Shown here piece after piece: positions 1,323-15,952 of a stretch of DNA of 64,000 bases. The DNA comes from an uncultured Clostridium sp. GTDB lineage: Bacteria; Bacillota; Clostridia; TANB77; CAG-508. The translations under genes were made by a program, and so were the position numbers. The DNA lies in NCBI GenBank assembly GCA_946565805.1, contig CAMNWO010000005.1:4062-68061 (forward strand), given 5' to 3'. A model generated the notes under the pieces. It saw only the letters and a list, made by a program, of their open reading frames with translations, made no database searches and was not told where the DNA came from. The first letter of the stretch is position 1. Each line of letters starts with the position of its first letter.

Positions 1323-2424
1323 TTATAATTTCAGTTTCAAATAGCTTTCCATAAATTCATCAATTTCTCCATCCATAACTGCTTGTACATTTCCAACTTC
1401 ATAATTGGTTCTGTGGTCTTTTACCATCGTATAAGGACAAAATACATAAGAACGAATTTGACTTCCCCATGCAATATCCATTTGGACACCTTTTAAATCC
1501 TCAATTTTTTCTTTTTGTTCTTTTTCTTTTAAATCTAATAATTTGGATTTTAACATTTTCATCGCAGTTTCTCTATTTTGAATTTGTGAACGTTCTGATT
1601 GACAAGCTACCACAATGTTGGTTGGTATATGTGTTATTCTTACTGCTGAAGAGGTTTTGTTGATATGTTGCCCTCCTGCTCCTGAAGCACGATAGGTATC
1701 CACTCTTAAGTCATCTGGATTAATTTCTAATTCAATGTCATCTGTTATTTCTGGTAAAACCTCCAAAGAGGCAAAAGATGTATGCCTTCTTCCTCCACTG
1801 TCAAAAGGAGAAATTCTTACTAATCGATGAACTCCCATTTCAGATTTCATGTAACCATAAGCATTTTCCCCTACAATTTCAAAAGTTACACTTTTTATCC
1901 CAGCTTCTTCTCCTTCTAAGTAATCTAATTCTTTCACTTCATAATTATTTTTATTAGCCCATCTGGTATACATACGGTATAACATCTCTGCCCAGTCTTG
2001 CGATTCTGTTCCTCCTGCTCCTGGATGAATGGTAACAATTGCATTGTTGTTATCATATTTTCCAGATAGAAAAGTAGCAACTTCAAATTTCTCAATTTGT
2101 TTTTGTGTTTTATTTGTATTTCTTAGAATTTCTTTTGCAATTTCTTCATCTGGCTCTAGTTCTACTAATTCAGTTAGTTCTTCTAAATTATTAATTTCAT
2201 TTTTTATTTCAGTATATTGATTGGTTTTATTCTTGATTGCCTTTATTTTAGCTAATACTTTGCTGGAACTTTTGCTATCTCCCCAAAAATTCTCTTCCAT
2301 TGTTTTCTTTTCTAGTTCTTCTAATTGTTTATTTAGCTCAGCAATGTCAAAGAGATTCACCCAATTCTTGTAGTTTTTGTTTTAAAGCTTGAAGTATTTT
2401 TGTGTTTTCTTCTAACTCTAACAT
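1323..2424 (-). CDS. prfB: peptide chain release factor 2, expressed through a programmed +1 frameshift
   Basis: SPF (SPFDSGGRRHTSFA) and GGQ (GAGGQHINKT) motifs. ATG at 2422-2424 follows AAGGAGAG; 25 codons (MLELEENTKILQALKQKLQELGESL) end at in-frame TGA 2347-2349; the +1 frame continues as DIAELNK... to 1323. Confidence 0.93.
2346..2352 (-). promoter_or_regulatory. RF2 autoregulatory +1 frameshift site CTT TGA C
   Basis: Minus-strand sequence TTGGGTGAATCT CTT TGA C. The slippery CUU-U plus UGA-C context is identical to the canonical prfB site. Confidence 0.9.
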
Positions 2425-2447
2425 GTTTATCACTCTCCTTCTTTATT

Positions 2448-2476
2448 ATCATATCTTATTTTCTTTTTTAATTCAA
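2448..2476 (-). promoter_or_regulatory. candidate sigma-A promoter for prfB
   Basis: Minus strand TTGAAT (2471-2476), 17-nt spacer, TATGAT (2448-2453); it lies just downstream of the island terminator. Confidence 0.4.
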
Positions 2477-2491
2477 GTACATTTATTTCAT

Positions 2492-2527
2492 TTTAAAAAA
2501 ACCTGCCAATATTAATTGGCAGGTTTG
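2492..2527 (-). terminator. intrinsic terminator ending the kinase operon
   Basis: Stem aaacctgccaat / attggcaggttt with loop ttaa; on the minus strand it is followed by TTTTTTTAAAA. Confidence 0.85.
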
Positions 2528-2541
2528 ATGCGCATGCTCTC

Positions 2542-5500
2542 CTATTTCTTAGAAACATCATATAGAACATAATCTGTTATCACACTGAAACCTCGAGAGT
2601 TAAAGTTGCACAAACGTGAATTTGGAGTCATAATTGTGCACTCCATCTTCTTGTGGGTCATTTTATTTGTTTTGATAATGTACAGATTGTCTTGACTAGG
2701 AATGTAAATAACTCCCTTATTAAAGGCGACATTTTTCACATTCATGTCATTAACATCTGCTGGAATTTGACCTTCTGTGTAATGTCCATTTGATGCGTTA
2801 ATGATAAGAAACTTTCCTTTCGTACTAATTACTAGCCACATCTTTGAGACATCATCATAAAGAATGTTGTACTTAGAATTGGAATTCGAATCGATTTGGC
2901 AAAGCTCTTCGCTATTGCAATAAATCTTATCTCTTCCCTCTTTGTCGCGCTTAACTTGCATAAACTTTGCATTGAATTGTACCAAAAAACCAACGGTTTC
3001 CTGGTTTTTCAAGAATTTGATTTTATCTCGTCCTATGACATCAATTAAACCAAACTCAATCCTGTGGATAATATTTTCTCTACTTATGTAAAGAACATTA
3101 TCATTTACTACAACGTTATCTGTATCATAGCAGAATTTCTCTTCAAAAATTTGATGGTCTGACCTGATGTCAAATCCAACAATTCTATTTGAGTATACTG
3201 CCAAAGCAAGGGTATAACCATATAAAGGCAAAATATCGATAATTTCCATACAATTTGGAAAATGTGCATAATGTTCTGCTTTGTCATCTAATATAGTAGC
3301 ATAATAATCATTACTTTCTCTGCCTATAGCAGAACAAGTATTGATAATGCGAACTACATTTCTGGAAAAAGGATTGTTCTTTTTGGCAATAAACTTCGAA
3401 CCAATTGGAATAATATCTTTCTTTTCTGTATTTCCTGTATATAGAGCTTGATATTGTGCCTTAAGTTCTGGAACAATGCTACGTCTAAGATCTCCTTCGA
3501 AAGTGTTCAAAAAAACATTTTTCAGATCATCTCTCATCCAATCATCCCATGGTACTGCAATAGGAGGGATGGCTATGCCATGATTTCCTAAAAGAGATAA
3601 ACGGCGTTCCATTCTTTCGGGAATTTCTAAAATGTGTCCATCTACCTCATAAACCCCATTGAAAGGATGTATAAAAGTGAGATAGTGAAATGCTTGAACA
3701 GCCATTGAATACCAGTCATCTTTTTTAGTAATATTACCATTATTCTTAGATACTGGGTCAATATATCCATCTGTCCAAAAGATTGGCGAAATATTATCTA
3801 CACCCATTCCATCAAAGTCCAAAAAATATACGTTTTTGTCCTTATCAAAAAGAATATTTCCACCATTCAAATCACCAATAAAGATATTTGCCTTATCATG
3901 TAAAGTTTGAACTCCTTCACTTATTGTAATTAAAATTTCGAGTATATCTTTACGAGTAATACCTAAATCGTTTACTTGCTTCGTATCACATAAAGCAGAG
4001 ATTGGCTCGCCCTTTACTTTTTGATCCATGATATAGCCTAAGATCTTATTCGTTTTTTTGTCAACCAGAATTTTCTTGGGAAAAATGTACTTAAACTTAT
4101 GATTTTGCTGGTTGATTTCTTCCAAGATTTCTGTTTTTGCTATAATAGCAGAGAGAATTTTGCTCTTAAAAGAATAATCAATTTGATCTTCTTTGAAAAC
4201 TTTTGCAACACTATTATTTTTATATTCATATATAATAGCCTCTCCGCCTTGACCAAATTCTTTCCAATCAGAAATATTAGAAGAATTTACATACTTAATG
4301 TCTAGCTTTTTCATTTTCGTTCTATCCACACATCTAGGGCAGAATAAATCGTCAGCCTTATAATAAATTTTGTGAATAGAACAATACATGGTTAAAGTTT
4401 CAGCATATTCACCAAGTAAATTTAGAAGGTAGTCTATATTTCCTCTTTTTACCCAATTTACAGCAGAGATATCAATATCCTTATCTAAGTTAATCACATT
4501 AAGGATGTACTGGCATGTCCATTTTAATGTATTGGCCTGCTTTCCTTCTTCTCCCAAAAATTCAACATTAACAATTTGTACTTGTCCCTTATAGTTCTTA
4601 CTTAAGAAAACATCACCAAATGGATTTTGAATGAAATATAGCTGATTGTTAACAAGCTCTTTTACTTGTAAAATCAACCGTATTAAACACTTAATTCTTG
4701 GCAAGTTTTTTAAGTTCTCCACATCTTTTATGTCTTTAAAATCTAAATTGTCAAAATCGATAGCATTATAAAGATATCCTATAAATTTTTGATTACTAGC
4801 TGATAAAGCTTTTTTGTAAGGAAGGAAACAATCTTGCTGTAATGGATAAGCTTCTTCGCTCATTCTTCTAGTAATTATTTTATCAATATTTGCTTCCATT
4901 TTTGCCATATTAAGACTTTCTTCTTTATAAACTTTGAGATTATACTCACAAGAAAGTTTATAATGAATAGCATAGTTATCCTCAAAAACTTTAGCTAAAT
5001 TTTCTAACTCATCCTGTTGTATTATTTGACGTGTCTTCAAGCAAACTGGACACATTTGTTTTGAGCTATCATAATAAATTTTGTGTTCTTCACAATATGC
5101 ATCCATTTCCTCAGCAAGACAAATCAAATAGGATTCATAGTCGTAGAGGGACTCGTGTAAACCTAAATCCACAAAGGCATTTTCATTATACCCTCTGTTT
5201 GTTAATTGCTTAAAGAATTTTTTAATAAATTCTAATGTTGAGTCCTCACCACTTCTTAAGATTTCAAAAACTTCATCTAGTTTATTGATATAGAAGAAAA
5301 ACTCATCATCCCGCAAAGTTATATAAATATTTGACAAATGGATAAAGTATCTACCAAAGTTAGTCATTAACATCCCCGCGATTTGCAATATTTCCTTGTT
5401 GTTGTATTTTAAGAAACTATCCATTGTGATTGGCTCTCCAAAGAAAGGTGTTGTTATATACCCTGAAACATAATATAAATTATCTGAATTGAGATCGAAA

Positions 5501-7182
5501 GAATAAATAATTTCCGATATTTCAACAAATTCTACATATTTATTAAAGCCGTAAAATTTATTCGCAATCTCATCATCCAAAGAGTTCATTTTGCGTGCTA
5601 GCGTATAAATGTTTTCTCTCTTATTAAAAGTTACTACAAGTCTTCCATCTGGTAGCCTTTCTTTTGTATTTCTTTCCATCTTAACGTTGTACCTATCCTT
5701 CACTTCTTGTTCAAATGCGAAGGGAATCGTCTCCAATGGATTGTATAAAAAATTTCTGTCAAACAACAAGTTCTTATCAATAGGTTTCCCATCGTACAGG
5801 ATAAAGCTATTAAATTTCTCAGTTGCTCTATCAATGTCTACTTTTTTTGCCATAACAAAGTTATAGAATTCTTTTGCAAGCCTAGGAGACAGATATCGAA
5901 CTTCCTTTTTCTCATAAAGAGTTAACTTGTCTGAAATTTCACCATACGTTTTTTCTAAATAAGCACGAAGCAATTTGAAAAATAGCATGGTAATATCTTC
6001 GTCTATCTTTTGAGGACTTTCTGAAACAAGTCTAAACAAGCTATCAACTTCAACAATTTTAAAATTATTGTTTGGATAACACACTACTTCTGTTTCTATG
6101 TCAAATTCATGTTTATCTGTTTCAAACTCAGAATGTGCTTTTACACATAGTCCATGAAGATAACTGCTTAACTTAGAAACAAAATCAAGAATATCAGCTT
6201 GGCTTTCAAATGCAACATCTAAAATTGCTGATTTATTTTTACCTGCTGTGCATTCATATTCATATCCAATAATGTTATCATCAAAATCAACAACGAAAGT
6301 TTTAAAACAGTCTTCCAAATCTTCCCTTGTACAATTAAGAAATCCTTCGTTTGTCCCACTCTTTAAAAGTTCGCTAAACTTATTATCCATTTCTCGATAG
6401 ATTTTTATACGGTTATCATAAATGGTATAGTTTTCTGTCTTCTCTGTTACTGGCAATTTATTACTGAAATTGGAGTCACCAATAATATATACATTAGGCT
6501 GGTAGGATGATAGAAAACGTATTATGCCTTCCTTTTGTAAAACTAAATCAATATTTGGAATAGTTCCATTTGCACAATAGTTATAACACATTTGAATAAT
6601 TGACATGCCATAAGGAAAATCACGTAATCTACAAATTTCATTTTTTTCAATGATTGTCTGGTAAAATTCTTCCATGTTATCTTCACCTGAAAGTACATAA
6701 TGAACATATTTTATAAGACATCCATTTTCTGTACCCCCAAGTTTAAAAAATGAAAGAAAACTAGATAAATAGATACATGTTTCCTTATTAAAAACAGTCT
6801 CATCAATGGTATACCCCTTTTCCTGCATTTTCTGTGCAAAAGAAACTAGTTCTTGAAGCTTTTCAAAGTCTCCTAGTTGTTTCCACTCCTCTACTAAATA
6901 GGATTGCATATCAGCAAATAACATTTGCACACAATTTGATTTATCAGCTATAAAATCTGTAACTTTAAAATCAATATGCTTCTTAGATGAAATCGTTTCT
7001 TTCCATTGTTTTAAACTTTTTACAACGGGAAAAATCCTTTTTCCAACTTCTTTGTCTTCTAGCAAGACAACTATTTTGCCATCCCGATAATAGATTTTTT
7101 CTTTGCCAATAACTTCAGATACTAATTGATAAGAGCTTTTTTCAAAATTATTGAAAATAAATTTTTTAAATTTATCATTCAT
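2542..7182 (-). CDS. giant Ser/Thr protein kinase: N-terminal region, degenerate kinase-like repeats, two Zn-ribbons, one active Hanks-type kinase, beta-rich C-terminal domain
   Basis: AAAGGAGA SD precedes ATG 7182. Kinase motifs: GQGGEA (4237-4254), AKVFK, IGDLNGGN, DFDGMG (DFD 3811-3819), GYIDP, DDWYSMAV. CxxH..CPxC knuckles lie at 5041-5094 and 4330-4383. Confidence 0.8.
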   Translation of the reverse strand: MNDKFKKFIFNNFEKSSYQLVSEVIGKEKIYYRDGKIVVLLEDKEVGKRIFPVVKSLKQWKETISSKKHIDFKVTDFIADKSNCVQMLFADMQSYLVEEWKQLGDFEKLQELVSFAQKMQEKGYTIDETVFNKETCIYLSSFLSFFKLGGTENGCLIKYVHYVLSGEDNMEEFYQTIIEKNEICRLRDFPYGMSIIQMCYNYCANGTIPNIDLVLQKEGIIRFLSSYQPNVYIIGDSNFSNKLPVTEKTENYTIYDNRIKIYREMDNKFSELLKSGTNEGFLNCTREDLEDCFKTFVVDFDDNIIGYEYECTAGKNKSAILDVAFESQADILDFVSKLSSYLHGLCVKAHSEFETDKHEFDIETEVVCYPNNNFKIVEVDSLFRLVSESPQKIDEDITMLFFKLLRAYLEKTYGEISDKLTLYEKKEVRYLSPRLAKEFYNFVMAKKVDIDRATEKFNSFILYDGKPIDKNLLFDRNFLYNPLETIPFAFEQEVKDRYNVKMERNTKERLPDGRLVVTFNKRENIYTLARKMNSLDDEIANKFYGFNKYVEFVEISEIIYSFDLNSDNLYYVSGYITTPFFGEPITMDSFLKYNNKEILQIAGMLMTNFGRYFIHLSNIYITLRDDEFFFYINKLDEVFEILRSGEDSTLEFIKKFFKQLTNRGYNENAFVDLGLHESLYDYESYLICLAEEMDAYCEEHKIYYDSSKQMCPVCLKTRQIIQQDELENLAKVFEDNYAIHYKLSCEYNLKVYKEESLNMAKMEANIDKIITRRMSEEAYPLQQDCFLPYKKALSASNQKFIGYLYNAIDFDNLDFKDIKDVENLKNLPRIKCLIRLILQVKELVNNQLYFIQNPFGDVFLSKNYKGQVQIVNVEFLGEEGKQANTLKWTCQYILNVINLDKDIDISAVNWVKRGNIDYLLNLLGEYAETLTMYCSIHKIYYKADDLFCPRCVDRTKMKKLDIKYVNSSNISDWKEFGQGGEAIIYEYKNNSVAKVFKEDQIDYSFKSKILSAIIAKTEILEEINQQNHKFKYIFPKKILVDKKTNKILGYIMDQKVKGEPISALCDTKQVNDLGITRKDILEILITISEGVQTLHDKANIFIGDLNGGNILFDKDKNVYFLDFDGMGVDNISPIFWTDGYIDPVSKNNGNITKKDDWYSMAVQAFHYLTFIHPFNGVYEVDGHILEIPERMERRLSLLGNHGIAIPPIAVPWDDWMRDDLKNVFLNTFEGDLRRSIVPELKAQYQALYTGNTEKKDIIPIGSKFIAKKNNPFSRNVVRIINTCSAIGRESNDYYATILDDKAEHYAHFPNCMEIIDILPLYGYTLALAVYSNRIVGFDIRSDHQIFEEKFCYDTDNVVVNDNVLYISRENIIHRIEFGLIDVIGRDKIKFLKNQETVGFLVQFNAKFMQVKRDKEGRDKIYCNSEELCQIDSNSNSKYNILYDDVSKMWLVISTKGKFLIINASNGHYTEGQIPADVNDMNVKNVAFNKGVIYIPSQDNLYIIKTNKMTHKKMECTIMTPNSRLCNFNSRGFSVITDYVLYDVSKK

Positions 7183-7205
7183 AAGTTTTCTCCTTTTTTA
7201 GTCTG

Positions 7206-7227
7206 TAGGGGGAATTACATCCCCCTA
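7206..7227 (-). promoter_or_regulatory. GC-rich intercistronic stem-loop between the vWA stop and the kinase SD
   Basis: taggggga (7206-7213) / tcccccta (7220-7227) form a perfect 8-bp stem with a 6-nt loop. No U-tract follows on the minus strand, so it is not a classical terminator. Confidence 0.5.
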
Positions 7228-7231
7228 TCCC

Positions 7232-7939
7232 TTATATTGCATCAATCCAATCATCGTCTTCTAAGGCTTGAGCTGTTCTTTGAGAATATCCCTGGGACTG
7301 ACTCGAATGCATTCCCTGACTAAAGAAGTCCGCTCCCAAAGATTTATAGCTCTGTGATTGCTCTTTACATGAATTAGGAAGAGTAACTCCAAGGAAGTTT
7401 AAGAGTGCAGATCGATTTGTTACATCAACAGTTGCCTTAAATCCCAGCTTTCTCCCATATTCTGCGCTAATGTCTTTACCGAATGCTGCAAATGCTGTAT
7501 CTATTCCAGAATAGTTCATTCTAGCAACAGCTTTTCTTCCCTGTTCATCTGTCATTTTATCACGACAAGGTTCTCCGTCTGAAAAGCACACAAAAGTTGC
7601 TCTTGGAACGATTCCTGTACGTTTAACAACTTCACGAACGTAGTTGCAAAGAAGATCTGCAGATTTTGAAATCGAATAATTCAGTGCAGTTGCTCCATCT
7701 GCATAATAATGGTCACTCATCTCACTTACTGGTCTAAATTCACCAGGATAAAACTCCCCATTAAACCGACAAACAGATACAGCAATAGAATTTTTTAAAT
7801 AAAATGTCTCAAAGCTGTCCTTAAATAACCCAATGCCTTTTCGACAATTGCGTACATCATCACACATAGACCCTGATGAGTCCAGAAGTAGTACATAAGC
7901 ATTAATCCTATCTGAAGAAAAATCATAAAAGTTAGCCAT
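7232..7939 (-). CDS. von Willebrand factor A (TerY-like) protein with intact MIDAS
   Basis: LLLDSSGSM (DSSGS at 7868-7882), ADGATAL, CFSDGEP. GGAGG lies 8 nt before ATG 7939, so the track start at 7954 is probably too long. Confidence 0.8.
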   Translation of the reverse strand: MANFYDFSSDRINAYVLLLDSSGSMCDDVRNCRKGIGLFKDSFETFYLKNSIAVSVCRFNGEFYPGEFRPVSEMSDHYYADGATALNYSISKSADLLCNYVREVVKRTGIVPRATFVCFSDGEPCRDKMTDEQGRKAVARMNYSGIDTAFAAFGKDISAEYGRKLGFKATVDVTNRSALLNFLGVTLPNSCKEQSQSYKSLGADFFSQGMHSSQSQGYSQRTAQALEDDDWIDAI

Positions 7940-7955
7940 CGTTTTTACCTCCATT

Positions 7956-9476
7956 TTATAAGTTGTTTGTGTTTGTTTGTAAGTTACTTAATACATTTTC
8001 TAAACCGTTAAAGTAAAAAGAATTTAAAAATACCTTATTATTTTCTACTTTAAAATCGAAATTTAAATTTCGAAGTGTTTGAACAATTTTTGTTTCATTG
8101 TTATCCAAATGAAAAATAACGACATATTCCTTATTAGCAATATTTAGTACTTTTTGTTTCTTTTCTGTAATGGTTTTTGAATGATAAGGATATTTTGTAA
8201 TATATTTCTGGATGTGGCTACTAAGATCATTTGAAGTGTTTTTTACTACCCCAAGTGTATCAAAAAGCACCAATAAGAAATAAATTTCTTTGTAAGTAAT
8301 ATCCTCTGATAAGTTTTCTAGTAGTTTCATCAGTAACCATACACGTTCATCGTGTGTTTTGGCAAAAATACTTACTAAGGCTACCTTTGCTGTATCAATA
8401 GGAGAAACTAAGACTTCTTCTTCGTCTACTGTTATATCCATTCCAGCAATCAATTTCACCTTAATTTTTTCTTCCGCAACTTTGCTAAGCTTTAACATCT
8501 CAAACAAATCTGTTTCAAATGTTAAAATTTCATTCCAAAAATTATTCTCTAAGAGCATTTTTTTGGAATCTTTTAAATCAATAAGATGCGTAAGTAGTTT
8601 TTCTGATCTCATTTTTAGAGCTTTGTAATATCCGTCATTAGAAATGAAAGGTAAAAGCTCAAGTAAGTCAGATAACTCATTCTTTAGGAATGCCATATAA
8701 ACAGTTCCATAATCGAATTCATCAAAGTCTGACATCATAACAGAAGTTTCCTTAAGCAATATATTAGGCGATTTATCAGAGTTACGCACATTAGATTTGA
8801 AAATTTGATAATCTACATATGACAATAACTCTATTACTCGTTCTTTCAACTGCTGGTCTGCTAAAATATAATAGCAATTCTTGAATTCTTCTACAATCTC
8901 TCTTTCCTTCTGAATCGCTTTTTCGAGCTGTAAGCAAACCTTTGCTTTTTCACATTCTTTCGAATGGATTATCGAAACGTTGTATAAAATATTCAATTTT
9001 TTAATTAGTCGCTGTAAGCGCTTTGAGATAATGTGAAACTTTACCGTGCTTTCAATGAACTTTCGAATATCCTTTTGAAGCCTAACTATCTCATCGATTT
9101 TGGAAGTATCACTATCTGGATCAATTTCAAAAGTTAGTAATTTTTTGAGTTCTTCCAAACTTGAATTGTACGAAGCTCTTAAATTTTCTATCCTTTGCAA
9201 AAATCCATTGTATTCTTCCGGAAAATCATTTTCGAAGATAGCAATTTCTTGCAGAAGTTCGTAAAGCTTTGTCATTAATGTCCTCTTGGCAACATTTATG
9301 CGTTCTTGCATTTCTTCTTCTGCTACTTCCTCGTTAAGGTTATCAACAGAAGTATCACTTTGCTCGGTAGTACCTTCTGGCATAGCAAGTGCAGGAATAT
9401 TATTTTCCGCCGTTTCTAAAGAAAATGGGGGAAAAATATTGTTAAAAAAATCATAAATTTTTTGCATAAAAGTCAC
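7956..9476 (-). CDS. 506-aa predicted all-helical/coiled-coil protein of unknown function
   Basis: GTG start 8 nt after AGGAGG. Acidic N-terminus and heptad-like Leu/Ile/Lys/Glu-rich sequence; I recognise no motif. Tightly packed between the two vWA genes. Confidence 0.6.
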   Translation of the reverse strand: MTFMQKIYDFFNNIFPPFSLETAENNIPALAMPEGTTEQSDTSVDNLNEEVAEEEMQERINVAKRTLMTKLYELLQEIAIFENDFPEEYNGFLQRIENLRASYNSSLEELKKLLTFEIDPDSDTSKIDEIVRLQKDIRKFIESTVKFHIISKRLQRLIKKLNILYNVSIIHSKECEKAKVCLQLEKAIQKEREIVEEFKNCYYILADQQLKERVIELLSYVDYQIFKSNVRNSDKSPNILLKETSVMMSDFDEFDYGTVYMAFLKNELSDLLELLPFISNDGYYKALKMRSEKLLTHLIDLKDSKKMLLENNFWNEILTFETDLFEMLKLSKVAEEKIKVKLIAGMDITVDEEEVLVSPIDTAKVALVSIFAKTHDERVWLLMKLLENLSEDITYKEIYFLLVLFDTLGVVKNTSNDLSSHIQKYITKYPYHSKTITEKKQKVLNIANKEYVVIFHLDNNETKIVQTLRNLNFDFKVENNKVFLNSFYFNGLENVLSNLQTNTNNL

Positions 9477-9496
9477 GTTATATTCCTCCTATCCTC

Positions 9497-10243
9497 TTAT
9501 TGAAAAGTTCTTGGAATAGAACCGATCGAATGAAAACCAAGCTCTGCTGCCTCCTTAAAATATTCTTCTGAAAGACAAAAGTATTTGGTTGTTACTTTAA
9601 TCTTTGACGCTACCTTGTAAAAACTGTTCCATGCTTCTTCTTTCGAAGTAACAGAGCTATTGTCTTTACAAGTTCCAATACCAATGATACTAATCTTATC
9701 AATTTGAAGTCTGTCATGTTCTCTTTCTTCGATTGACAAGTATTTCTCATTAACTATTTTCTCGAGCTGAACCAAAGCATCAAATAAACATACTTTTTCT
9801 CCTGTCATTTCATGACATAAGACAGGAACAGCCTTTTCCTTAGAAGTTTCGAAAATTTCACTTTGTTTTACAGTTTCACCATAATTGATGATACATACTA
9901 AATCTGACTTTGCAAAATTTTTAACAATTTGCAAAACAGTATCTTTTTCGTTTCCTACTATTGCCGTATTTTCTACCAAAATAATGGTAAGCTCTTTCTT
10001 TTCCAACCGTTTAATGATTGGTTTTGGAATAATAGGTTTAGAAGAGGCTGTTCTGAAAGTTGTTCCTTCTTCTGGAAGTCCATACATCAATTGAAATTCT
10101 AAATTAGGATCCACAAGTTTGGAAGCTTTTTCTTTTCCAATTGGCTGTTGTTCTTTTTTAGGTTGTTCAACTGTTGCTGGATATTCATCCTTTTTCTTTC
10201 TCCATTTTTTACCCTTTGTTTTTGAATTGTCAAATATACCCAT
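9497..10243 (-). CDS. vWA-like protein with degenerate MIDAS and a Lys/Pro-rich N-terminus
   Basis: LTIILVENTAIV...LVCIINYGETV...ISIIGIGTCKDN...TTKYFCLSEE follows the vWA strand pattern, but the DxSxS positions read ENTAI. AGGAGG SD; its ATG overlaps the upstream stop (TAATG). Confidence 0.55.
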   Translation of the reverse strand: MGIFDNSKTKGKKWRKKKDEYPATVEQPKKEQQPIGKEKASKLVDPNLEFQLMYGLPEEGTTFRTASSKPIIPKPIIKRLEKKELTIILVENTAIVGNEKDTVLQIVKNFAKSDLVCIINYGETVKQSEIFETSKEKAVPVLCHEMTGEKVCLFDALVQLEKIVNEKYLSIEEREHDRLQIDKISIIGIGTCKDNSSVTSKEEAWNSFYKVASKIKVTTKYFCLSEEYFKEAAELGFHSIGSIPRTFQ

Positions 10244-10929
10244 TATTTTTTACCTCCTAACATTCCAATTGTAATATCATCATGAAAAGACATTCTTTTT
10301 TCTTTGAGAATTGTTTCTGTCAGAGAGAAGTTTTCAGCTACAATACTGGTATCTATGTCTTTCATGTCAAATTTTATAATTGGCATAACTCCATCAGTAG
10401 CAATTAATACCTTCTTGAAAACTGTTTTATCAAAGGTAAATGTCTTAAATTGATAATCCTTGAAAGTAGGTGCCATCTGACTACAATATTTGTAGGCATA
10501 GTATGGCGGGCAACTTCCATATGCAAATTTCATATAACTCAATAATCCTTTTGCATTTTGGGTAATAATGTACCCATCTCCAAAAAGTTTCACAATGTAC
10601 TTATCTTCTGTTTCAAAACAAGCTATGATTGTAAACAAAAGATTTTCCATAATGTAATCTCTTTCGAGGTCATCGCTAATTGGATAGTACTTTTTTAACA
10701 TAGTAAGTATGTCATCAAAAACACTTTTTACATTATCTTCAAATTTTTCTAAGCTATCACATTCCTCCTTTCTTGAGAAAAGCTGTCCAAACAACCGTGC
10801 TCCGGAATCGGAATACTTTGCAGCACTGCACCCATCTAAAATAAGTACCATTTTTTCGTTTTCCATTCCAAAATCTTGATTGTTAATTCCATTTGTAAAA
10901 TGCCCAAATCCTTGAGAAGTTATAATCAT
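10243..10929 (-). CDS. PP2C-family (PP2C_2-like) protein phosphatase
   Basis: SQGFGHFTNGINNQDFG, LILDGCSAAKYSDSGA, KLFGDGYII and LIATDGVM match the conserved Asp/Gly blocks of bacterial PP2C_2 proteins. AGGAGA SD. Confidence 0.7.
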   Translation of the reverse strand: MIITSQGFGHFTNGINNQDFGMENEKMVLILDGCSAAKYSDSGARLFGQLFSRKEECDSLEKFEDNVKSVFDDILTMLKKYYPISDDLERDYIMENLLFTIIACFETEDKYIVKLFGDGYIITQNAKGLLSYMKFAYGSCPPYYAYKYCSQMAPTFKDYQFKTFTFDKTVFKKVLIATDGVMPIIKFDMKDIDTSIVAENFSLTETILKEKRMSFHDDITIGMLGGKK

Positions 10930-10978
10930 AATTTCCCTTTCTCCTTTCTATTGTTTATTTCAAAAAAATAACATATAC

Positions 10979-11007
10979 ATAATACCATATTTTATGTAAA
11001 ACATCAA
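10979..11007 (-). promoter_or_regulatory. candidate extended -10 promoter of the PP2C-vWA-kinase operon
   Basis: Minus strand TTGATG (11002-11007), 17-nt spacer ending in TGg, TATTAT (10979-10984). Confidence 0.5.
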
Positions 11008-11010
11008 TAC

Positions 11011-11044
11011 AAAAGGGCGAATTTCTTTCGAAATCCACCCTTTT
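11011..11044 (-). terminator. hairpin downstream of TelA
   Basis: aaaagggcgaatttc / gaaatccaccctttt form a 15-bp stem with two G-U pairs on the RNA and loop tttc. The U-run is only the CCCUUUU at the stem base, so termination may be partial. Confidence 0.5.
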
Positions 11045-11064
11045 GATATGTTTTTTATCTGAAA

Positions 11065-12315
11065 TTAAAATTTCAGACCAGCAACTCCAGTTGGAGTTTT
11101 GCTTGTTTCTGTATTTAATGTTTCAATAGATGTACCAACAACTGGCTCAAGCTGTTCGATTAAGCCATTTAATTCAGTGAGATCTGCCTTCATCTTAGGA
11201 AGCATTTCATCAGCCACTTTCTTAATGTTTTCACAACTATTTATTACTTCTGTTACCGCAGTTTTTGCTGCGTCCGCATTATAAAAACTTGCATACATCG
11301 CTTTCTCAGCTAGCTCTGCTGTCATTCCAACTGATTGACTAACATCTTTTACAAGTTCGTCATTCAGTCGCACAATTGCATTCTGCCCTTCCAAGACCTC
11401 TTTGGTCTTTGCATTTAACAGTGCATTACGTAATTGCTGCCCCACAAGAGCCATACTGTTATTGACCTGCGTGTTAATTGCAATCTGGACATCAATATTA
11501 CTCTTTTTGATTAATGACAGTTGCCCCATGCTTAAATAATACATAATACGGGACTTTTCAAGGTTGTTCATCGTTATTTCAAAAATGTCATGTCCTTCCT
11601 TAAGTTCCTGATAATCATGTGCATATTGTAACATTCCCGTTGTCTGATGCTGCTCTTGGATCGCTTGCATTTCACCAGCAATTCGTTCATCTGCAATCTT
11701 GCCAGCAATAATGTACTTTTCAAGCAAAGAAATTGTCTCAATATCACTCAGCATCGAAGTTGTAATATCTCCCATTGCATTTTTCAACATATTAACCCAA
11801 GTATCGCAAGACGTTTTCAATTCTACCAAAAGTTTATAGCTAGTTACTGCACTTTTTTGAATCTTATCTGTCTTCGATTTGCTTTTGGATCCGCTTGTAA
11901 GTTTCAGTAAGAGTTTCTGAAAAAGGCCTGGCTCTTGAAGAACCATATTGAAATCATCATAACTGTTCGAAGCCTTTTTCGAAAGTTCAATAACTCTTGA
12001 AATGACTTCCTGGTCAGCATGTGAACCTCTTTCATCTTTTAAAAAACTTCCGCACTGCTCAAATGTCCTCTTCAATGCAATAGAACCATAGCTCATAACA
12101 TTTTCAGTTTTTCTAACATCAATGCTATCTGCAAGTTCTAAGATTTCCTGCCGTTCTTTCTCTGAATAAGTTGCTAATGCCTGTTTGCAATTAAGCGGTA
12201 TGACATCATTTTTTGTTGTTGGAACAGAAATCTGTTGTAACCCAATTGCTCCTACGTCTGGTGTCACAACTGTTTCCGGTGTTGTTTGTGTAGCCATTTG
12301 TGTGTTATTTTCCAT
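11065..12315 (-). CDS. telA: TelA-family (toxic anion resistance) protein
   Basis: ILELADSIDVRKTENVMSYGSIALKRTFEQCGSFL and a long helical body of ~400 aa resemble TelA/YceH/YaaN proteins. GGAGG lies 8 nt before ATG 12315. Confidence 0.7.
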   Translation of the reverse strand: MENNTQMATQTTPETVVTPDVGAIGLQQISVPTTKNDVIPLNCKQALATYSEKERQEILELADSIDVRKTENVMSYGSIALKRTFEQCGSFLKDERGSHADQEVISRVIELSKKASNSYDDFNMVLQEPGLFQKLLLKLTSGSKSKSKTDKIQKSAVTSYKLLVELKTSCDTWVNMLKNAMGDITTSMLSDIETISLLEKYIIAGKIADERIAGEMQAIQEQHQTTGMLQYAHDYQELKEGHDIFEITMNNLEKSRIMYYLSMGQLSLIKKSNIDVQIAINTQVNNSMALVGQQLRNALLNAKTKEVLEGQNAIVRLNDELVKDVSQSVGMTAELAEKAMYASFYNADAAKTAVTEVINSCENIKKVADEMLPKMKADLTELNGLIEQLEPVVGTSIETLNTETSKTPTGVAGLKF

Positions 12316-12369
12316 AGTGTTTACCTCCATTGTTTAAACATTAAATTGGTTACTATATTACGTTCACTT

Positions 12370-12398
12370 ATTATATCACCGTTTATTAATTATGTCAA
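12370..12398 (-). promoter_or_regulatory. consensus sigma-A promoter of telA
   Basis: Minus strand TTGACA (12393-12398), 17-nt spacer ending in TGa, TATAAT (12370-12375). Confidence 0.7.
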
Positions 12399-12473
12399 TT
12401 AGCATTGATAAATTTCTTTTCATTTGTATTGAAGGTTATCTTTATTATTAAAAAGTGTTAAGAAAAACGTATT

Positions 12474-12510
12474 AAATAAGAAAATGGCGAAAGAAATTTA
12501 TTCTTCCGCC
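12474..12510 (-). terminator. intrinsic terminator after the 180-aa gene
   Basis: On the minus-strand RNA, GGCGGAAGAA / UUCUUUCGCC pair fully (one G-U), followed by AUUUUCUUAUUU. Confidence 0.7.
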
Positions 12511-12554
12511 ACAAGATTCACTATTCAATTGTTATCTGAAAATTTCAAGTTAGC

Positions 12555-13097
12555 TTACTCGTCTCTGCTTTCTTCGCTTTCTTCCTGCTCATCTTCATAC
12601 ATCCATTTTTGGAAGCCTTCGACAAACTTTTGTGCCGTCTTTTTCGCCTTTTTCTCGGCTTTAGCTACATATTTAGGTCCTTTGTCTTTAACCTTTTCTT
12701 TAGTAGCATTGAAGCCCTCCTGTACTGTGCTACTAACCTCCTCGAATGCAGTTCTGGCATCTTCGTACATCTGCTTAATTTCTTCAGAATACGCAGGCTT
12801 GTTTCCATCTTCGATCATTTCAATCAGTTTGGAGGTATACTCCAAAACAAATTCTTTATCTACTTTTCCGCCACAATAAGATAAAACATGCTGCTGGAGT
12901 GATTTCGCAAGAATAGCATACTGTTTTTCTTCTAAAAGTGGTTCCACAGAACCAAACAGCTGCATCATACATTCATCGATAAGTGGTTTGTCTTTTTCCT
13001 TTGCATATCTCAGAATGTTCCGGATGTCAATCAGTTTCTCATAAGCTTTCTTAACGTTTTCATTCATCATAGTTGCACCAACCTTTCTTAAAGTCAT
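12555..13097 (-). CDS. 180-aa helical protein with a Lys-rich then acidic C-terminus, unknown function
   Basis: ORF with its own promoter and terminator; the start could be the internal ATG at 13070. I recognise no motif. Confidence 0.5.
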   Translation of the reverse strand: MTLRKVGATMMNENVKKAYEKLIDIRNILRYAKEKDKPLIDECMMQLFGSVEPLLEEKQYAILAKSLQQHVLSYCGGKVDKEFVLEYTSKLIEMIEDGNKPAYSEEIKQMYEDARTAFEEVSSTVQEGFNATKEKVKDKGPKYVAKAEKKAKKTAQKFVEGFQKWMYEDEQEESEESRDE

Positions 13098-13115
13098 TTT
13101 TAACGTTACTTTGCT

Positions 13116-13144
13116 ATCTTATCACATTATGTTAAATTTGTCAA
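13116..13144 (-). promoter_or_regulatory. candidate promoter of the 180-aa gene
   Basis: Minus strand TTGACA (13139-13144), 17-nt spacer ending in TGa, TAAGAT (13116-13121). Confidence 0.4.
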
Positions 13145-13176
13145 TTAAAAATAGTGGAAAACTAAATTTCCACTAT
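13143..13176 (-). terminator. secA terminator
   Basis: atagtggaaa (13151-13160) / tttccactat (13167-13176), followed on the minus strand by UUUUUAAUU. Confidence 0.75.
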
Positions 13177-13183
13177 CTTAGTA

Positions 13184-15952
13184 TTATTGATTTTTGCCAC
13201 AGCAATTTTTGTATTTCTTCCCACTTCCACATGGACAAGGATCATTTCTACCAACCTTAGGACCTTCATTACGAACTGTTCTATCAACATCTGTTCCTAT
13301 TTTAGCTCCTCCATCTACACTGTGGATTGCTTCTAAAGCTGCCCCTGTAATTTTAACTGTTTCTTGTCTTTTTGTTTCTCCTTGTTGTCTAATATGCATT
13401 AATATCTTAGTTACATCTACTTTAATGTCATTTATCATTTCGTCAAACATGTCAAAACCTTCTAAACGATACTGAACAACTGGATCTTTTTGACCGTAAG
13501 CACGTAAGCCAATACCATTTTTCAATTCGTCCATGCTATCAATGTGGTTCATCCATTTTTCGTCAACAACTTTAAGCATAACCACTCTTTCTAACTCTCT
13601 CATTTCATCTTGACCAATTTCTTGTTCTTTTTCAGCATAGATTTCCATTGCTTTTTTCTTTAATTCTGCTGAAATGGCATTAGAATCTGTTTTGTTATTT
13701 TTAATATAGTCTAACATATCAATTCCAAAAATATTGATAATTTCTGTATTTAAAGACTCTACATTTAACTCTGAAGTTTCTACATCAATAAACATATCTA
13801 CTATATTATCTGCTACAAATTCAACCATAGAAATAATGCTGTCATGGATATTTTCTCCATCTAAAACTTGTCTTCTTTGTTTATAGATAATTTCTCTTTG
13901 TGCATTCATAACATCGTCATATTTCAATACATTTTTACGAATACTGAAGTTTCTTCCTTCTACTTTCTTTTGCGCATTTTCTACTGCATTTGAAATAATT
14001 CTAGATTCAATTGGCATATCTTCATCTGCCCCAATTGTATTGTATACTTTTGTGATGGCATCTCCACCGAATATTTTCATTAAATCGTCATCTAATCCAA
14101 TATAGAATTTAGACTCACCATTATCTCCTTGACGTCCAGAACGTCCACGTAACTGATTGTCAATTCTTCTTGATTCATGTCTTTCGGTACCTATAATTTT
14201 TAATCCACCAGCTGCAATTACTTTTTCTTTTTCTTCTTTGATCTGTTCATCGTATTTTTTAACCAAACTTCTAAATTGTTCTCTTGCTTTTAGTATTTCT
14301 TGGTCTTCTGTTTCATAGTAGGTATCTGCTTCTTCAATGATTTCATGAGCTACTTTATTTCTTCTCATTTCTTCTTTGGCTAGGAACTCACTATTTCCAC
14401 CAAGCATAATGTCAGTACCACGTCCTGCCATGTTGGTTGCAATTGTAACAGCTCCAAATTTACCAGCTTGTGCTACAATTTCAGCTTCTTTTTCATGGTA
14501 TTTTGCGTTTAATACTTCGTGTTTAATTCCTTCTTTTTTCAATAACTGGCTTAATTTTTCTGATTTTTCAATGGATACTGTACCTACTAAGACTGGTTGT
14601 CCTACTTCATGGCTCTTTTTAATGCTTTCTACAATAGCTCTATATTTAGCATTTTCGTTTTTGTAAATAACATCATTTTCATCTTTACGAACCATTGGCT
14701 TATTGGTTGGAATGTCAACAACGTCTAAGTTATAGATTTCTTCGAATTCTCCTTCTTCTGTCATAGCTGTACCTGTCATACCAGATAATTTATCATACAT
14801 TCTAAATAAGTTTTGGAAGGTAATAGTTGCTAATGTTTTAGACTCGTCTGCAATTTTTACATTTTCTTTTGCTTCAATTGCTTGGTGTAATCCATTGTTG
14901 TATCTTCTTCCATACATAATACGTCCTGTAAATTCGTCAACAATTAATACTTCTCCATCTTTTACGATGTAATCAATGTCTTTTTTCATAACACCATGGG
15001 CTCTTAAAGCTTGGTTTACGTGATGAACTAATGTTGAATTTTCCAAGTCATTGAAGTTTTCTAGGTTAAAAGCATCTTCTGCTTTTTTAATACCTTTTCC
15101 AGTTAATGACGCAGATTTTGCCTTCAAGTCTACGATATAATCGTATTTTTCATTGTCTTCTGCTTGGTCATAATCTTTGATATCTTCTTCTACAATTACT
15201 TTTGGTGTTAGTCTTTTTACAAAGTCATTTGCTTTTTTGTATAGTCCTGATGACTCATTTGCTCTACCAGATATAATTAATGGTGTACGTGCTTCATCAA
15301 TTAAAATACTGTCGATTTCATCAACAATGGCATAATGTAATCCTCTTTGTACTAATTGGTTTTTGTAAATAACCATGTTATCTCTTAGGTAGTCAAATCC
15401 AAATTCATTATTGGTCCCATAAGTTACGTCTGCATTGTAAGCTTCTTGTTTTTCTTTTGGCTCCATTCCGCTAATTACTAATCCAACAGATAGTCCTAAG
15501 AATTTATATAGTTTTCCCATCCATTCACTGTCTCTTTTTGCTAGGTAATCGTTAACAGTAATAACATGCACTCCTTTTCCTTCTAGTGCATTTAAGTATA
15601 CAGGCAAAGTTGCAACTAGAGTTTTTCCTTCTCCTGTTTTCATTTCGGCAATTCTTCCTTGGTGTAGGATAATTCCACCGATTAATTGCACATCAAAATG
15701 TCTCATTCCTAATACTCTTTTAGAGGCTTCTCTTACAACTGCAAATGCTTCTACTAGAATATCGTCTAATGTTTTTCCTTCTTGTAATTGTTTTTTGAAT
15801 TCGTCGGTTTTTGCTCTTAATTGGCTGTCACTTAATTTTGACATTTCTTCTTCTAGTCCATTAATTTTTTCAACTAATGGCATTACTCTTTTTACTTCTT
15901 TTTCACTGTATGATTTGAATATTTTGTTAAATATACTCATTTTTGTCTTCAA
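13184..15952 (-). CDS. secA: preprotein translocase ATPase SecA
   Basis: 922 aa with [28 protein letters not shown] and the C-terminal Zn finger [14 protein letters not shown]. Confidence 0.97.

Follow-up and report, generated by a model that had tools for sequence, protein, structure and literature searches.

Tandem degenerate kinase folds, one intact Hanks-type kinase and a beta-propeller in a probable TerY-P-type triad kinase of uncultured gut Clostridia

In a stretch of 64,000 nucleotides from an uncultured Clostridium sp. (assembly GCA_946565805.1, contig CAMNWO010000005.1, forward-strand positions 4,062 to 68,061; hereafter the window, numbered from its first letter) we have analysed a minus-strand gene which encodes a protein of 1546 amino acids and closes a cassette of six genes. 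The protein is a tandem array of kinase-fold units followed by a C-terminal beta-propeller, and only one of the units, named N1, N2, U1, U2 and U3 from the N-terminus onwards (Table 1), has kept the catalytic residues of a Hanks-type kinase. The TerY-P triad consists of a vWA protein, a PP2C phosphatase and a Ser/Thr kinase fused to a Zn ribbon (PMC11090510 and PMC4978471, summarising Anantharaman, Iyer & Aravind 2012). We consider it probable that the gene encodes a TerY-P-type triad kinase, in which tandem dead kinase folds accompany one live unit and the propeller, and which would act as a phospho-switch. The core of this reading, namely dead units together with an intact Hanks kinase and a propeller or sensor in a vWA/PP2C triad, had been proposed in a first-pass annotation made from the letters of the window and their open reading frames, and it is supported by the results presented here.

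The open reading frame and its motifs are real. All 14 peptide motifs quoted in the first-pass annotation were found at the residues and window positions assigned to them, among others GQGGEA (residues 977-982, 4237-4254), DFDGMG (1122-1127, 3802-3819) and the ribbon peptides CSIHK..CPRC (934-951, 4330-4383) and CEEHK..CPVC (697-714, 5041-5094). Searching for homologues gave 29 full-length proteins, 1545-1612 amino acids long and 33-95% identical, and a second, word-index search with full alignment gave the same 29 proteins and nothing further. Scanning of species-representative genomes yielded 36 loci with orthologues of 1540-1620 amino acids and identity down to about 20%, all from metagenome-assembled genomes of uncultured gut Clostridia (mouse, rabbit, sheep, buffalo and human); the gene is no assembly artefact. 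The orthologue alignment contained 60 sequences, with 29 and 30 full-length orthologues from these sources, and the conservation counts below refer to it.

In an exhaustive HMMER search covering 1.84 billion representatives, 148 matches were obtained at E<=1e-30 and 3773 at the looser limit of E<=1e-3. Of the 150 matches listed (clusters at 50% identity), more than 110 are proteins of about 1500-1700 amino acids of the same type, all of them from uncultured gut Clostridia; the large family is known from metagenome-assembled genomes only. No name was found for any member in the cluster look-up or in the other sources consulted. The architecture had been called unusual for triad kinases, which holds, but with more than 110 clusters the family is not rare. 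The maximum KD19 hydrophobicity of the protein is 1.51 and no transmembrane segment was found, therefore the kinase is predicted to be soluble and cytoplasmic.

Judged by its profile and conserved residues, U3 is a genuine Hanks-type kinase for which phosphotransfer activity is predicted. The profile of residues 934-1235 matched RSK2 in the PDB with an E-value of 4.7e-9, and 178 kinase matches were obtained at E<=0.01. In the RSK2 alignment IGDLNGRNIL is paired with YRDLKPENIL, DFDG with DFG, the APE-like motif GYIDP with EYMAPE and the alphaF motif DDWYSFA with ADWWSFG. The Gly-rich loop and the beta3 (VAIK) Lys are both present; G979, G980, E981, K994, D1104, N1106, N1109 and D1124 are conserved in all 60 sequences, and the first metal-site Asp, D1122, in 57. 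The profile match and these residues bear out the full Hanks-type motif set which had been read in the C-terminal unit. The catalytic loop, IGDLNGGN, is a non-RD variant with Gly before the Asp, and the metal-binding motif DFDG is one residue longer than DFG. In a Pfam-A hmmscan with the single sequence no Pkinase match was obtained and ABC1 (E 0.028) was the sole kinase-like match; PF00069 is listed in precomputed form for most homologues, and NCBIfam kinase-containing models match U3 at 2e-7 to 1.5e-3, under their cut-offs. Since the single-sequence Pfam scan misses U3, the family must be regarded as strongly divergent.

The neighbouring unit U2 is, on profile evidence, a pseudokinase and a clear paralogue of U3. 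Self-BLASTP (word size 2, E 100) detected no internal repeat in the protein, and the repeats were seen with profiles only. Comparing residues 697-933 with 934-1235, hhalign gave 96-97%, with E-values between 3e-10 and 2e-9; the aligned columns, about 200 in number and collinear, span the Zn ribbon, the N-lobe, the hinge, alphaE and the catalytic region. Without the ribbon U2 still matched U3 at 45% (E 2e-4), and it matched a profile of 145 single-kinase relatives, independent of the large-family profiles, at 92% (E 8e-7; as a hidden Markov model (HMM), i-E 2.7e-5). The negative controls (the propeller, and the N-terminal region against the propeller profile) remained at 0.3-1.9% with E 0.025-0.23, and against the single-kinase profile at no more than 0.7%. 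As had been suggested for the upstream paralogue, the catalytic Asp and Asn and the DFG Asp are lost: the position of the catalytic Asp is occupied by F850/N853, the catalytic-loop Asn is unconserved, and the DFG Asp is replaced by N872 (56/60). U2 keeps the beta3 Lys, K750 (54/60), and has D735 (59/60) in place of the Gly loop. The positions of such key residues in the degenerate units depend on the hhalign alignment.

Of 132 family representatives, 125 have exactly two Zn ribbons, ribbon 1 being one of them. In the 1546-residue protein the ribbons come after U1 and U2, both dead units, and U3 is directly followed by the propeller. The repeated Zn-ribbon plus kinase units of the first-pass annotation are thus upheld as a kinase-fold repeat, but the ribbons are only two and the ancestral order is kinase and then ribbon; cutting the tandem array in ribbon-then-kinase phase is legitimate, though it is not the ancestral one.

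The last 300 or so residues, which had been described as rich in beta-strands and possibly a propeller, were modelled with AlphaFold2 (residues 1236-1546; pLDDT (predicted local distance difference test) 88.8, predicted template modelling score (pTM) 0.84). The model consists of one helix and then about 28 strands, and residues ~1256-1546 form a toroidal array of four-stranded blades, that is a seven-bladed beta-propeller. Foldseek gave 1320 matches at E<=1e-3, the best at 9.7e-10; the best 50 are all beta-propellers, and the matches listed include WD40 proteins, BamB, Cdc4 and DDB1. No WD40 or PQQ repeat signature was matched in Pfam, and against PDB sequences the propeller profile produced weak hints at E 0.07-1 (SEMA6A and BamB at E 0.3-1). 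The C-terminus is consequently assigned as a propeller by its modelled fold, without an assignable sequence family.

Residues 1-930 had no match in Pfam, NCBIfam or PADLOC, and the profile of residues 1-696 gave 0 matches in a PDB sequence search. An AlphaFold2 model of residues 1-696, built from a 28-sequence alignment, reached pLDDT 88.5 and pTM 0.74; because the pTM is high, a defined packing of domains is suggested. DSSP divides the model into three successive units (~1-230, 231-472 and 473-696), and each begins with three strands and a long helix, goes on with two long strands, a hinge and a second long helix, and ends with short strand pairs and further helices. The topology bbb-aC-bb-hinge-aE-bb corresponds to the kinase order beta1-3, alphaC, beta4-5, alphaE, beta6-9, alphaF; for N1 it reads bbb-aC-bb-hinge-aE-b. 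When the PDB was searched with this model in Foldseek, 783 matches were obtained at E<=10. The best 50 are without exception protein kinases, pseudokinases or folds resembling kinases; they include the PAN3 pseudokinase, the kinase domain of LanKC, CARK1, a pseudokinase from maize, BRAF, CK2, APH(2'') and NleH2.

Profile comparison lends moderate support to U1 and N2 as strongly eroded pseudokinases. Against the single-kinase profile U1 scored 82% (E 1.1e-5; 0.5-62% with other profile choices) and N2 62% (E 7.5e-5, 188 columns; 0.3-55% with other choices, of which 28-55% with merged U2+U3 and iterative profiles), while hhalign of U3 with U1 gave 22% (E 1e-3). These two units correspond to the third, eroded copy at about residues 574-680 and to the possible fourth at about 310-395 of the first-pass annotation, and both now have moderate support. 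The alignments place GYITT and IIGYEYE on beta5 and the hinge of the model, ILQIAGML... and ADILDFVSKL... on alphaE, and FFFYINKLD and NFKIVEVD on the strand preceding DFG. In N2 the beta3 motif RIKIYRE is kept (K260, 54/60) and parallels LKVYKE of U2 and AKVFKE of U3; its catalytic Asp position is variable and the DFG Asp is lost. In U1 the beta3 Lys is replaced by V517 and N633 stands at the DFG position, with the hinge GYITT retained. The catalytic Asp is missing from U2, U1 and N2 alike.

On the modelled fold N1 is probably a fifth kinase-fold unit, for which we claim no sequence homology. Tandem dead units had been predicted correctly, but the total of kinase-fold units, given before as three or four, is probably five, with N1 counted by fold only. 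Three of the 132 representatives (P0148, P0153 and P0156) have a third ribbon, CxxC..CPxC, at about residue 250, which was mapped by its position near the N1/N2 junction; the N-terminal family HMM did not detect the N-termini of these three proteins. This ribbon gives a weak hint of an N1 unit, and the three proteins may have preserved an older state of the array.

The origin of the array is illuminated by smaller relatives. Below the large family, the matches listed from the exhaustive search contain about 40 clusters of proteins of 550-660 amino acids (for example P0154, P0246 and P0282), in which an active kinase is followed by a CxxH..CPxC ribbon and then by a domain of about 280 amino acids. 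In profile comparison their kinase scored 100% against U3 (E 3e-64), and the C-terminal domain scored 99.5% against the propeller (E 5e-23). The closest relatives have ~587 amino acids, and one of the small proteins aligns over its full length with residues 960-1532 of the 1546-residue protein. They are common in gut Clostridia, they also occur in Saccharibacteria and Nomurabacteria, and all are annotated as 'hypothetical'. Since the single-kinase relatives are built as kinase–ribbon–propeller, this is taken as the ancestral module. An intermediate, P0149 (1152 amino acids), has the order unit–ribbon–unit–ribbon–kinase–propeller, and a clear evolutionary series can be seen, which starts with one kinase–ribbon–propeller, passes through intermediates of three units and reaches five. 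The large protein would have arisen from an ancestor of about 590 amino acids by repeated N-terminal duplication of the kinase, with or without its ribbon, and ribbons would have been lost between U3 and the propeller and after the first two units.

The cassettes of the small relatives have four genes in the order unknown–vWA–PP2C–kinase. Their vWA protein matches vWA2 of the large cassette at 99.6% (E 4e-24), and their 304-amino-acid protein is unrelated both to vWA1 and to the 506-amino-acid protein described below. As a separate observation, the small cassettes adjoin genes of NAD salvage (NAD synthase, NAPRTase, a regulator of NUDIX/NrtR type) at L039 1425-6033 and 11178-13129 and at L040 10782-14692, on one contig of gut Clostridia and one of Saccharibacteria; the genes may have been transferred as a block or may be linked in function.

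The large cassette has the order TelA–PP2C–vWA1–X506–vWA2–kinase, which is kept in every related locus with enough flank. The genes stand close together, the spacings between PP2C and the kinase being -1, 20, 1 and 49 nucleotides (PP2C and vWA1 overlap by 1 nucleotide, vWA2 and the kinase are 49 apart), and no hydrophobic segment of membrane-spanning length was found in the six cassette proteins. In vWA2 the MIDAS (metal ion-dependent adhesion site) residues D25, S27, S29, T89 and D126 are invariant. The last ~45 residues of the same protein form a conserved, Ser/Gln-rich tail, SCKEQSxSxKSLGxxFFSQ...YSQxTAQALxDDDW, with S195, Q199, S200 and S212 invariant, a candidate phospho-acceptor or docking motif. 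X506 is rich in Glu, Lys and Leu, and searches of Pfam, NCBIfam, PADLOC and PDB sequences yielded nothing for it. It is present in every large cassette and absent from the small ones. For vWA1 no Pfam match was obtained, and its assignment as a firm vWA domain was not adopted, the hhalign value against vWA2 being 3.9%; it is kept as a possible vWA.

A perfect extended -10 sigma-70 promoter match precedes TelA (12398-12370, minus strand), and a 16-bp hairpin with a poor T-run lies between TelA and PP2C (11010-11045, minus strand). Given the hairpin, TelA may be partly uncoupled from the five downstream genes. The terminator after the kinase stop codon (Table 1) was read directly from the sequence, and the consensus scan did not list it. 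The cassette is situated between secA and prfB (1323-15952 in the window) in at least ten genomes, with kinases of only 36-83% identity (the window and L001, L002, L005, L006, L010, L011, L013, L014 and L019). This fixed site suggests that the cassette has long been passed on vertically within a clade and is not a mobile island. We therefore hold a mobile defence island to be the less likely alternative, given the conserved secA–cassette–prfB synteny.

With regard to the mechanism, we infer the kinase activity, its substrates, the scaffold or allosteric role of the dead units and the physiological output, which could be a stress or a defence response. The dead domains might pack as a rigid platform; this platform and the propeller would bind partners or a signal and would control the live domain in cis. 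U3 would then phosphorylate cassette partners, the Ser/Gln-rich tail of vWA2 being the most plausible target and the 506-amino-acid protein and TelA other possible substrates. The co-transcribed PP2C would reverse the phosphorylation and reset the switch.

Several points weigh against the triad kinase reading and should be considered together. In U3 the DFG motif is atypical (DFDG) and HRD is read as IGD. The Pfam VWA match of vWA2 has E 0.11, under the threshold, and vWA1 is related to vWA2 at the above 3.9% with E 0.011, collinear over 147 columns. No PADLOC model matches the cassette, and the assignment of substrates is purely our inference. In the N-terminal part the Foldseek E-values are marginal (1.3e-3 to 6e-2, none <=1e-3, with a root-mean-square deviation of 8-10 Å) and the matches belong to the whole model, so that they are unassignable to single domains. 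Furthermore, the profile support for U1 and N2 varies with the profile chosen, from control level to 82%, and N1 gives 0.2% with the single-kinase profile and 0.1-2.2% with the others, that is control level, where it also stays after iterative merging of the units.

The cassette could alternatively serve in defence, with the pseudokinases and the propeller as decoys or baits (an integrated decoy) for phage or other invader proteins, which would be aimed at kinases or kinase substrates and whose binding would free the live kinase; the output would be a TelA/vWA-dependent abortive or protective response, switched off by PP2C. We regard this as unlikely. A link to defence is drawn for TerY-P triads and TerY-P-like modules in PMC11090510, and the plant proteins that combine kinase, pseudokinase and vWA in tandem are immune receptors according to PMC11153570. 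The divergence pattern would also suit a decoy: divergence is much faster in the pseudokinase units and in the propeller than in U3 (mean pairwise identity 0.28-0.37 against 0.54), and the tblastn alignment of the most distant orthologues is limited to residues ~697-1537. However, no unit is deleted among the full-length orthologues examined in spite of this divergence. A scaffold under relaxed constraint would account for the pattern, as would recognition surfaces that diversify, and the faster divergence may be just relaxed constraint on non-catalytic domains. The fixed chromosomal secA–prfB site, with the cassette diverging along with those genes, points to vertical inheritance and stands against the decoy, as do the missing PADLOC match and a cassette without a nuclease or other obvious effector.

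It is also conceivable that kinase descent is limited to residues 715-933 and 952-1235, and that the N-terminal ~700 residues are unrelated alpha/beta domains whose kinase likeness comes from weak profile matches and a multi-domain AlphaFold/Foldseek model. The negative self-BLASTP, the lack of Pfam and PDB sequence matches for residues 1-696 and the marginal, unassignable Foldseek values would agree with this. Within the family hhalign did not exceed 22% for U1 or 6% for N2 and N1; it was non-significant with 30 sequences and suggestive with 60 or with merged U2+U3 profiles. On the other hand, the values of U1 and N2 with the 145-relative profile have to be compared with the 0.7% of the controls, the alignments are collinear and bring the hinge GY, alphaE and the strands onto the matching elements of the model, N2 shares the xKIYxE beta3 motif with U2 and U3, and the best 50 Foldseek matches are all kinase or kinase-like. 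We consider an unrelated N-terminus quite improbable.

Some pseudokinases bind ATP or catalyse atypically. It is very improbable that U2 and N2 still bind nucleotide, or act non-canonically or on another substrate in a multi-enzyme protein: K750 and K260 are each kept in 54 of 60 sequences and the metal-binding positions of U2 hold N872 and an acidic E/D874, but its Gly-rich loop is replaced, Phe/Asn stands at its catalytic Asp position, which is variable in N2, and the loop Asn is unconserved. Atypical pseudokinase activity is discussed in bioRxiv 10.1101/2025.01.12.632604.

The triad kinase reading, which we prefer, can be compared with the known systems. As in TerY-P, genes for a MIDAS-intact vWA protein, a PP2C and a Hanks-type kinase are adjacent, the kinase chain carries CxxH..CPxC ribbons, and TelA, a gene of the Ter system, belongs to the cassette. 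The ribbon is present in altered form: here the ribbons lie between kinase-fold units, whereas in TerY-P the active kinase bears the ribbon at its C-terminus. The 1546-residue protein differs additionally by its four extra degenerate kinase-fold domains and its C-terminal propeller, and the cassette by a MIDAS-less vWA-like gene, the 506-amino-acid gene, the fixed secA–prfB site and the lack of nuclease or restriction partners. Four features set the system apart from the triads described: the array of several pseudokinases, the propeller, two additional genes and the fixed site. The small relatives share the kinase, the propeller, the ribbon motif and the vWA and PP2C partners, but they possess a single kinase without a pseudokinase array, they keep the ribbon between kinase and propeller, and their cassettes, ordered vWA–PP2C–kinase, are without TelA and the 506-amino-acid protein.

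In JAK, as in other pseudokinase–kinase tandems, a dead kinase domain (JH2) stands directly N-terminal to the live one (JH1) in the same chain. This tandem likeness suggests that cis allosteric control might operate in the 1546-residue protein as well. JAK differs in being eukaryotic, in having one pseudokinase against up to four, and in having no Zn ribbons, propeller or vWA/PP2C partners. In the plant WTK-vWA proteins Pm57 and Lr9 a kinase and a pseudokinase in one chain are coupled to a vWA domain, and the non-catalytic kinase fold is presumed to be a sensor or decoy (PMC11153570). The likeness is a functional analogy only: the plant proteins have a fused vWA and two kinase units, in contrast to separate vWA genes, five units, PP2C and a propeller here. 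The pseudokinases of the bacterial Ser/Thr kinase atlas are likewise Hanks-derived and lack the VAIK Lys, the HRD Asp and/or the DFG Asp, as given in bioRxiv 10.1101/2025.01.12.632604 and PMC12599244; word searches of these two recent surveys for tandem arrays, vWA, zinc and propellers found nothing.

Bacterial pseudokinases have been little studied, and the family offers a natural system for the question whether such domains are scaffolds, allosteric regulators or decoys. It links the TerY-P/TelA stress modules to abundant uncultured gut Clostridia, and its layout recalls the combination of kinase, pseudokinase and vWA in immune receptors of plants. If the decoy reading were true, the family would be a prokaryotic mechanistic counterpart of the plant tandem-kinase–vWA receptors, at a fixed site clade-wide; if the function is ordinary housekeeping signalling, its value is mostly architectural.

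Table 1. Kinase gene, its domains and the cassette in window coordinates
Feature	Residues	Window position	Strand	Basis or remark
Kinase gene		2542..7182	-	1546-codon open reading frame, product 1546 amino acids
N1, putative fifth, most degenerate kinase-like unit	1-230	6493..7182	-	AlphaFold2 fold topology
N2, pseudokinase	231-472	5767..6492	-	profile, AlphaFold2 topology, key residues
U1, pseudokinase	473-696	5095..5766	-	profile, AlphaFold2 topology, key residues
Zn ribbon 1, CEEHKIYYDSSKQMCPVC		5041..5094	-	C697, H700, C711, C714 invariant
U2, pseudokinase	715-933	4384..5040	-	hhalign to U3, HMM, key residues
Zn ribbon 2, CSIHKIYYKADDLFCPRC		4330..4383	-	C934, H937, C948, C951 invariant
U3, intact Hanks-type Ser/Thr kinase	952-1235	3478..4329	-	profile, residue conservation
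Short helix and seven-bladed beta-propeller	1236-1546	2545..3477	-	AlphaFold2, Foldseek
Intrinsic terminator		2495..2524	-	10-bp stem, TAAT loop, T6; directly after kinase stop
vWA2, TerY-like vWA, complete MIDAS		7232..7954	-	invariant MIDAS residues
X506, 506-amino-acid protein, E/K/L-rich		7956..9476	-	between both vWA genes in every locus
vWA1, 248 amino acids, possible vWA		9497..10243	-	degenerate MIDAS (ILVENTA)
PP2C-type phosphatase		10243..10929	-	Pfam PP2C_2 (PF13672) 3.8e-8
TelA, first cassette gene		11065..12330	-	Pfam TelA 1.1e-19, toxic anion resistance family

Some minor features were recorded around the cassette. Between secA and TelA lies a gene for a very acidic, Lys-rich protein of 180 amino acids (12555-13097, minus strand), which was found in one related locus only (L002, 65% identity) and is probably outside the cassette. 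In a locus from a rabbit-gut metagenome-assembled genome, a 2858-amino-acid open reading frame downstream of the kinase orthologue (L003, 14435-23008, plus strand) runs off the end of the locus. Finally, prfB (open reading frame 1323-2360, 345 amino acids) has the classical programmed +1 frameshift (2346-2424, minus strand): its ORF0 starts with the ATG at 2424, comprises 25 codons, MLELEENTKILQALKQKLQELGESL, and ends with CTT TGA C, and the listed frame continues in +1 from 2360.

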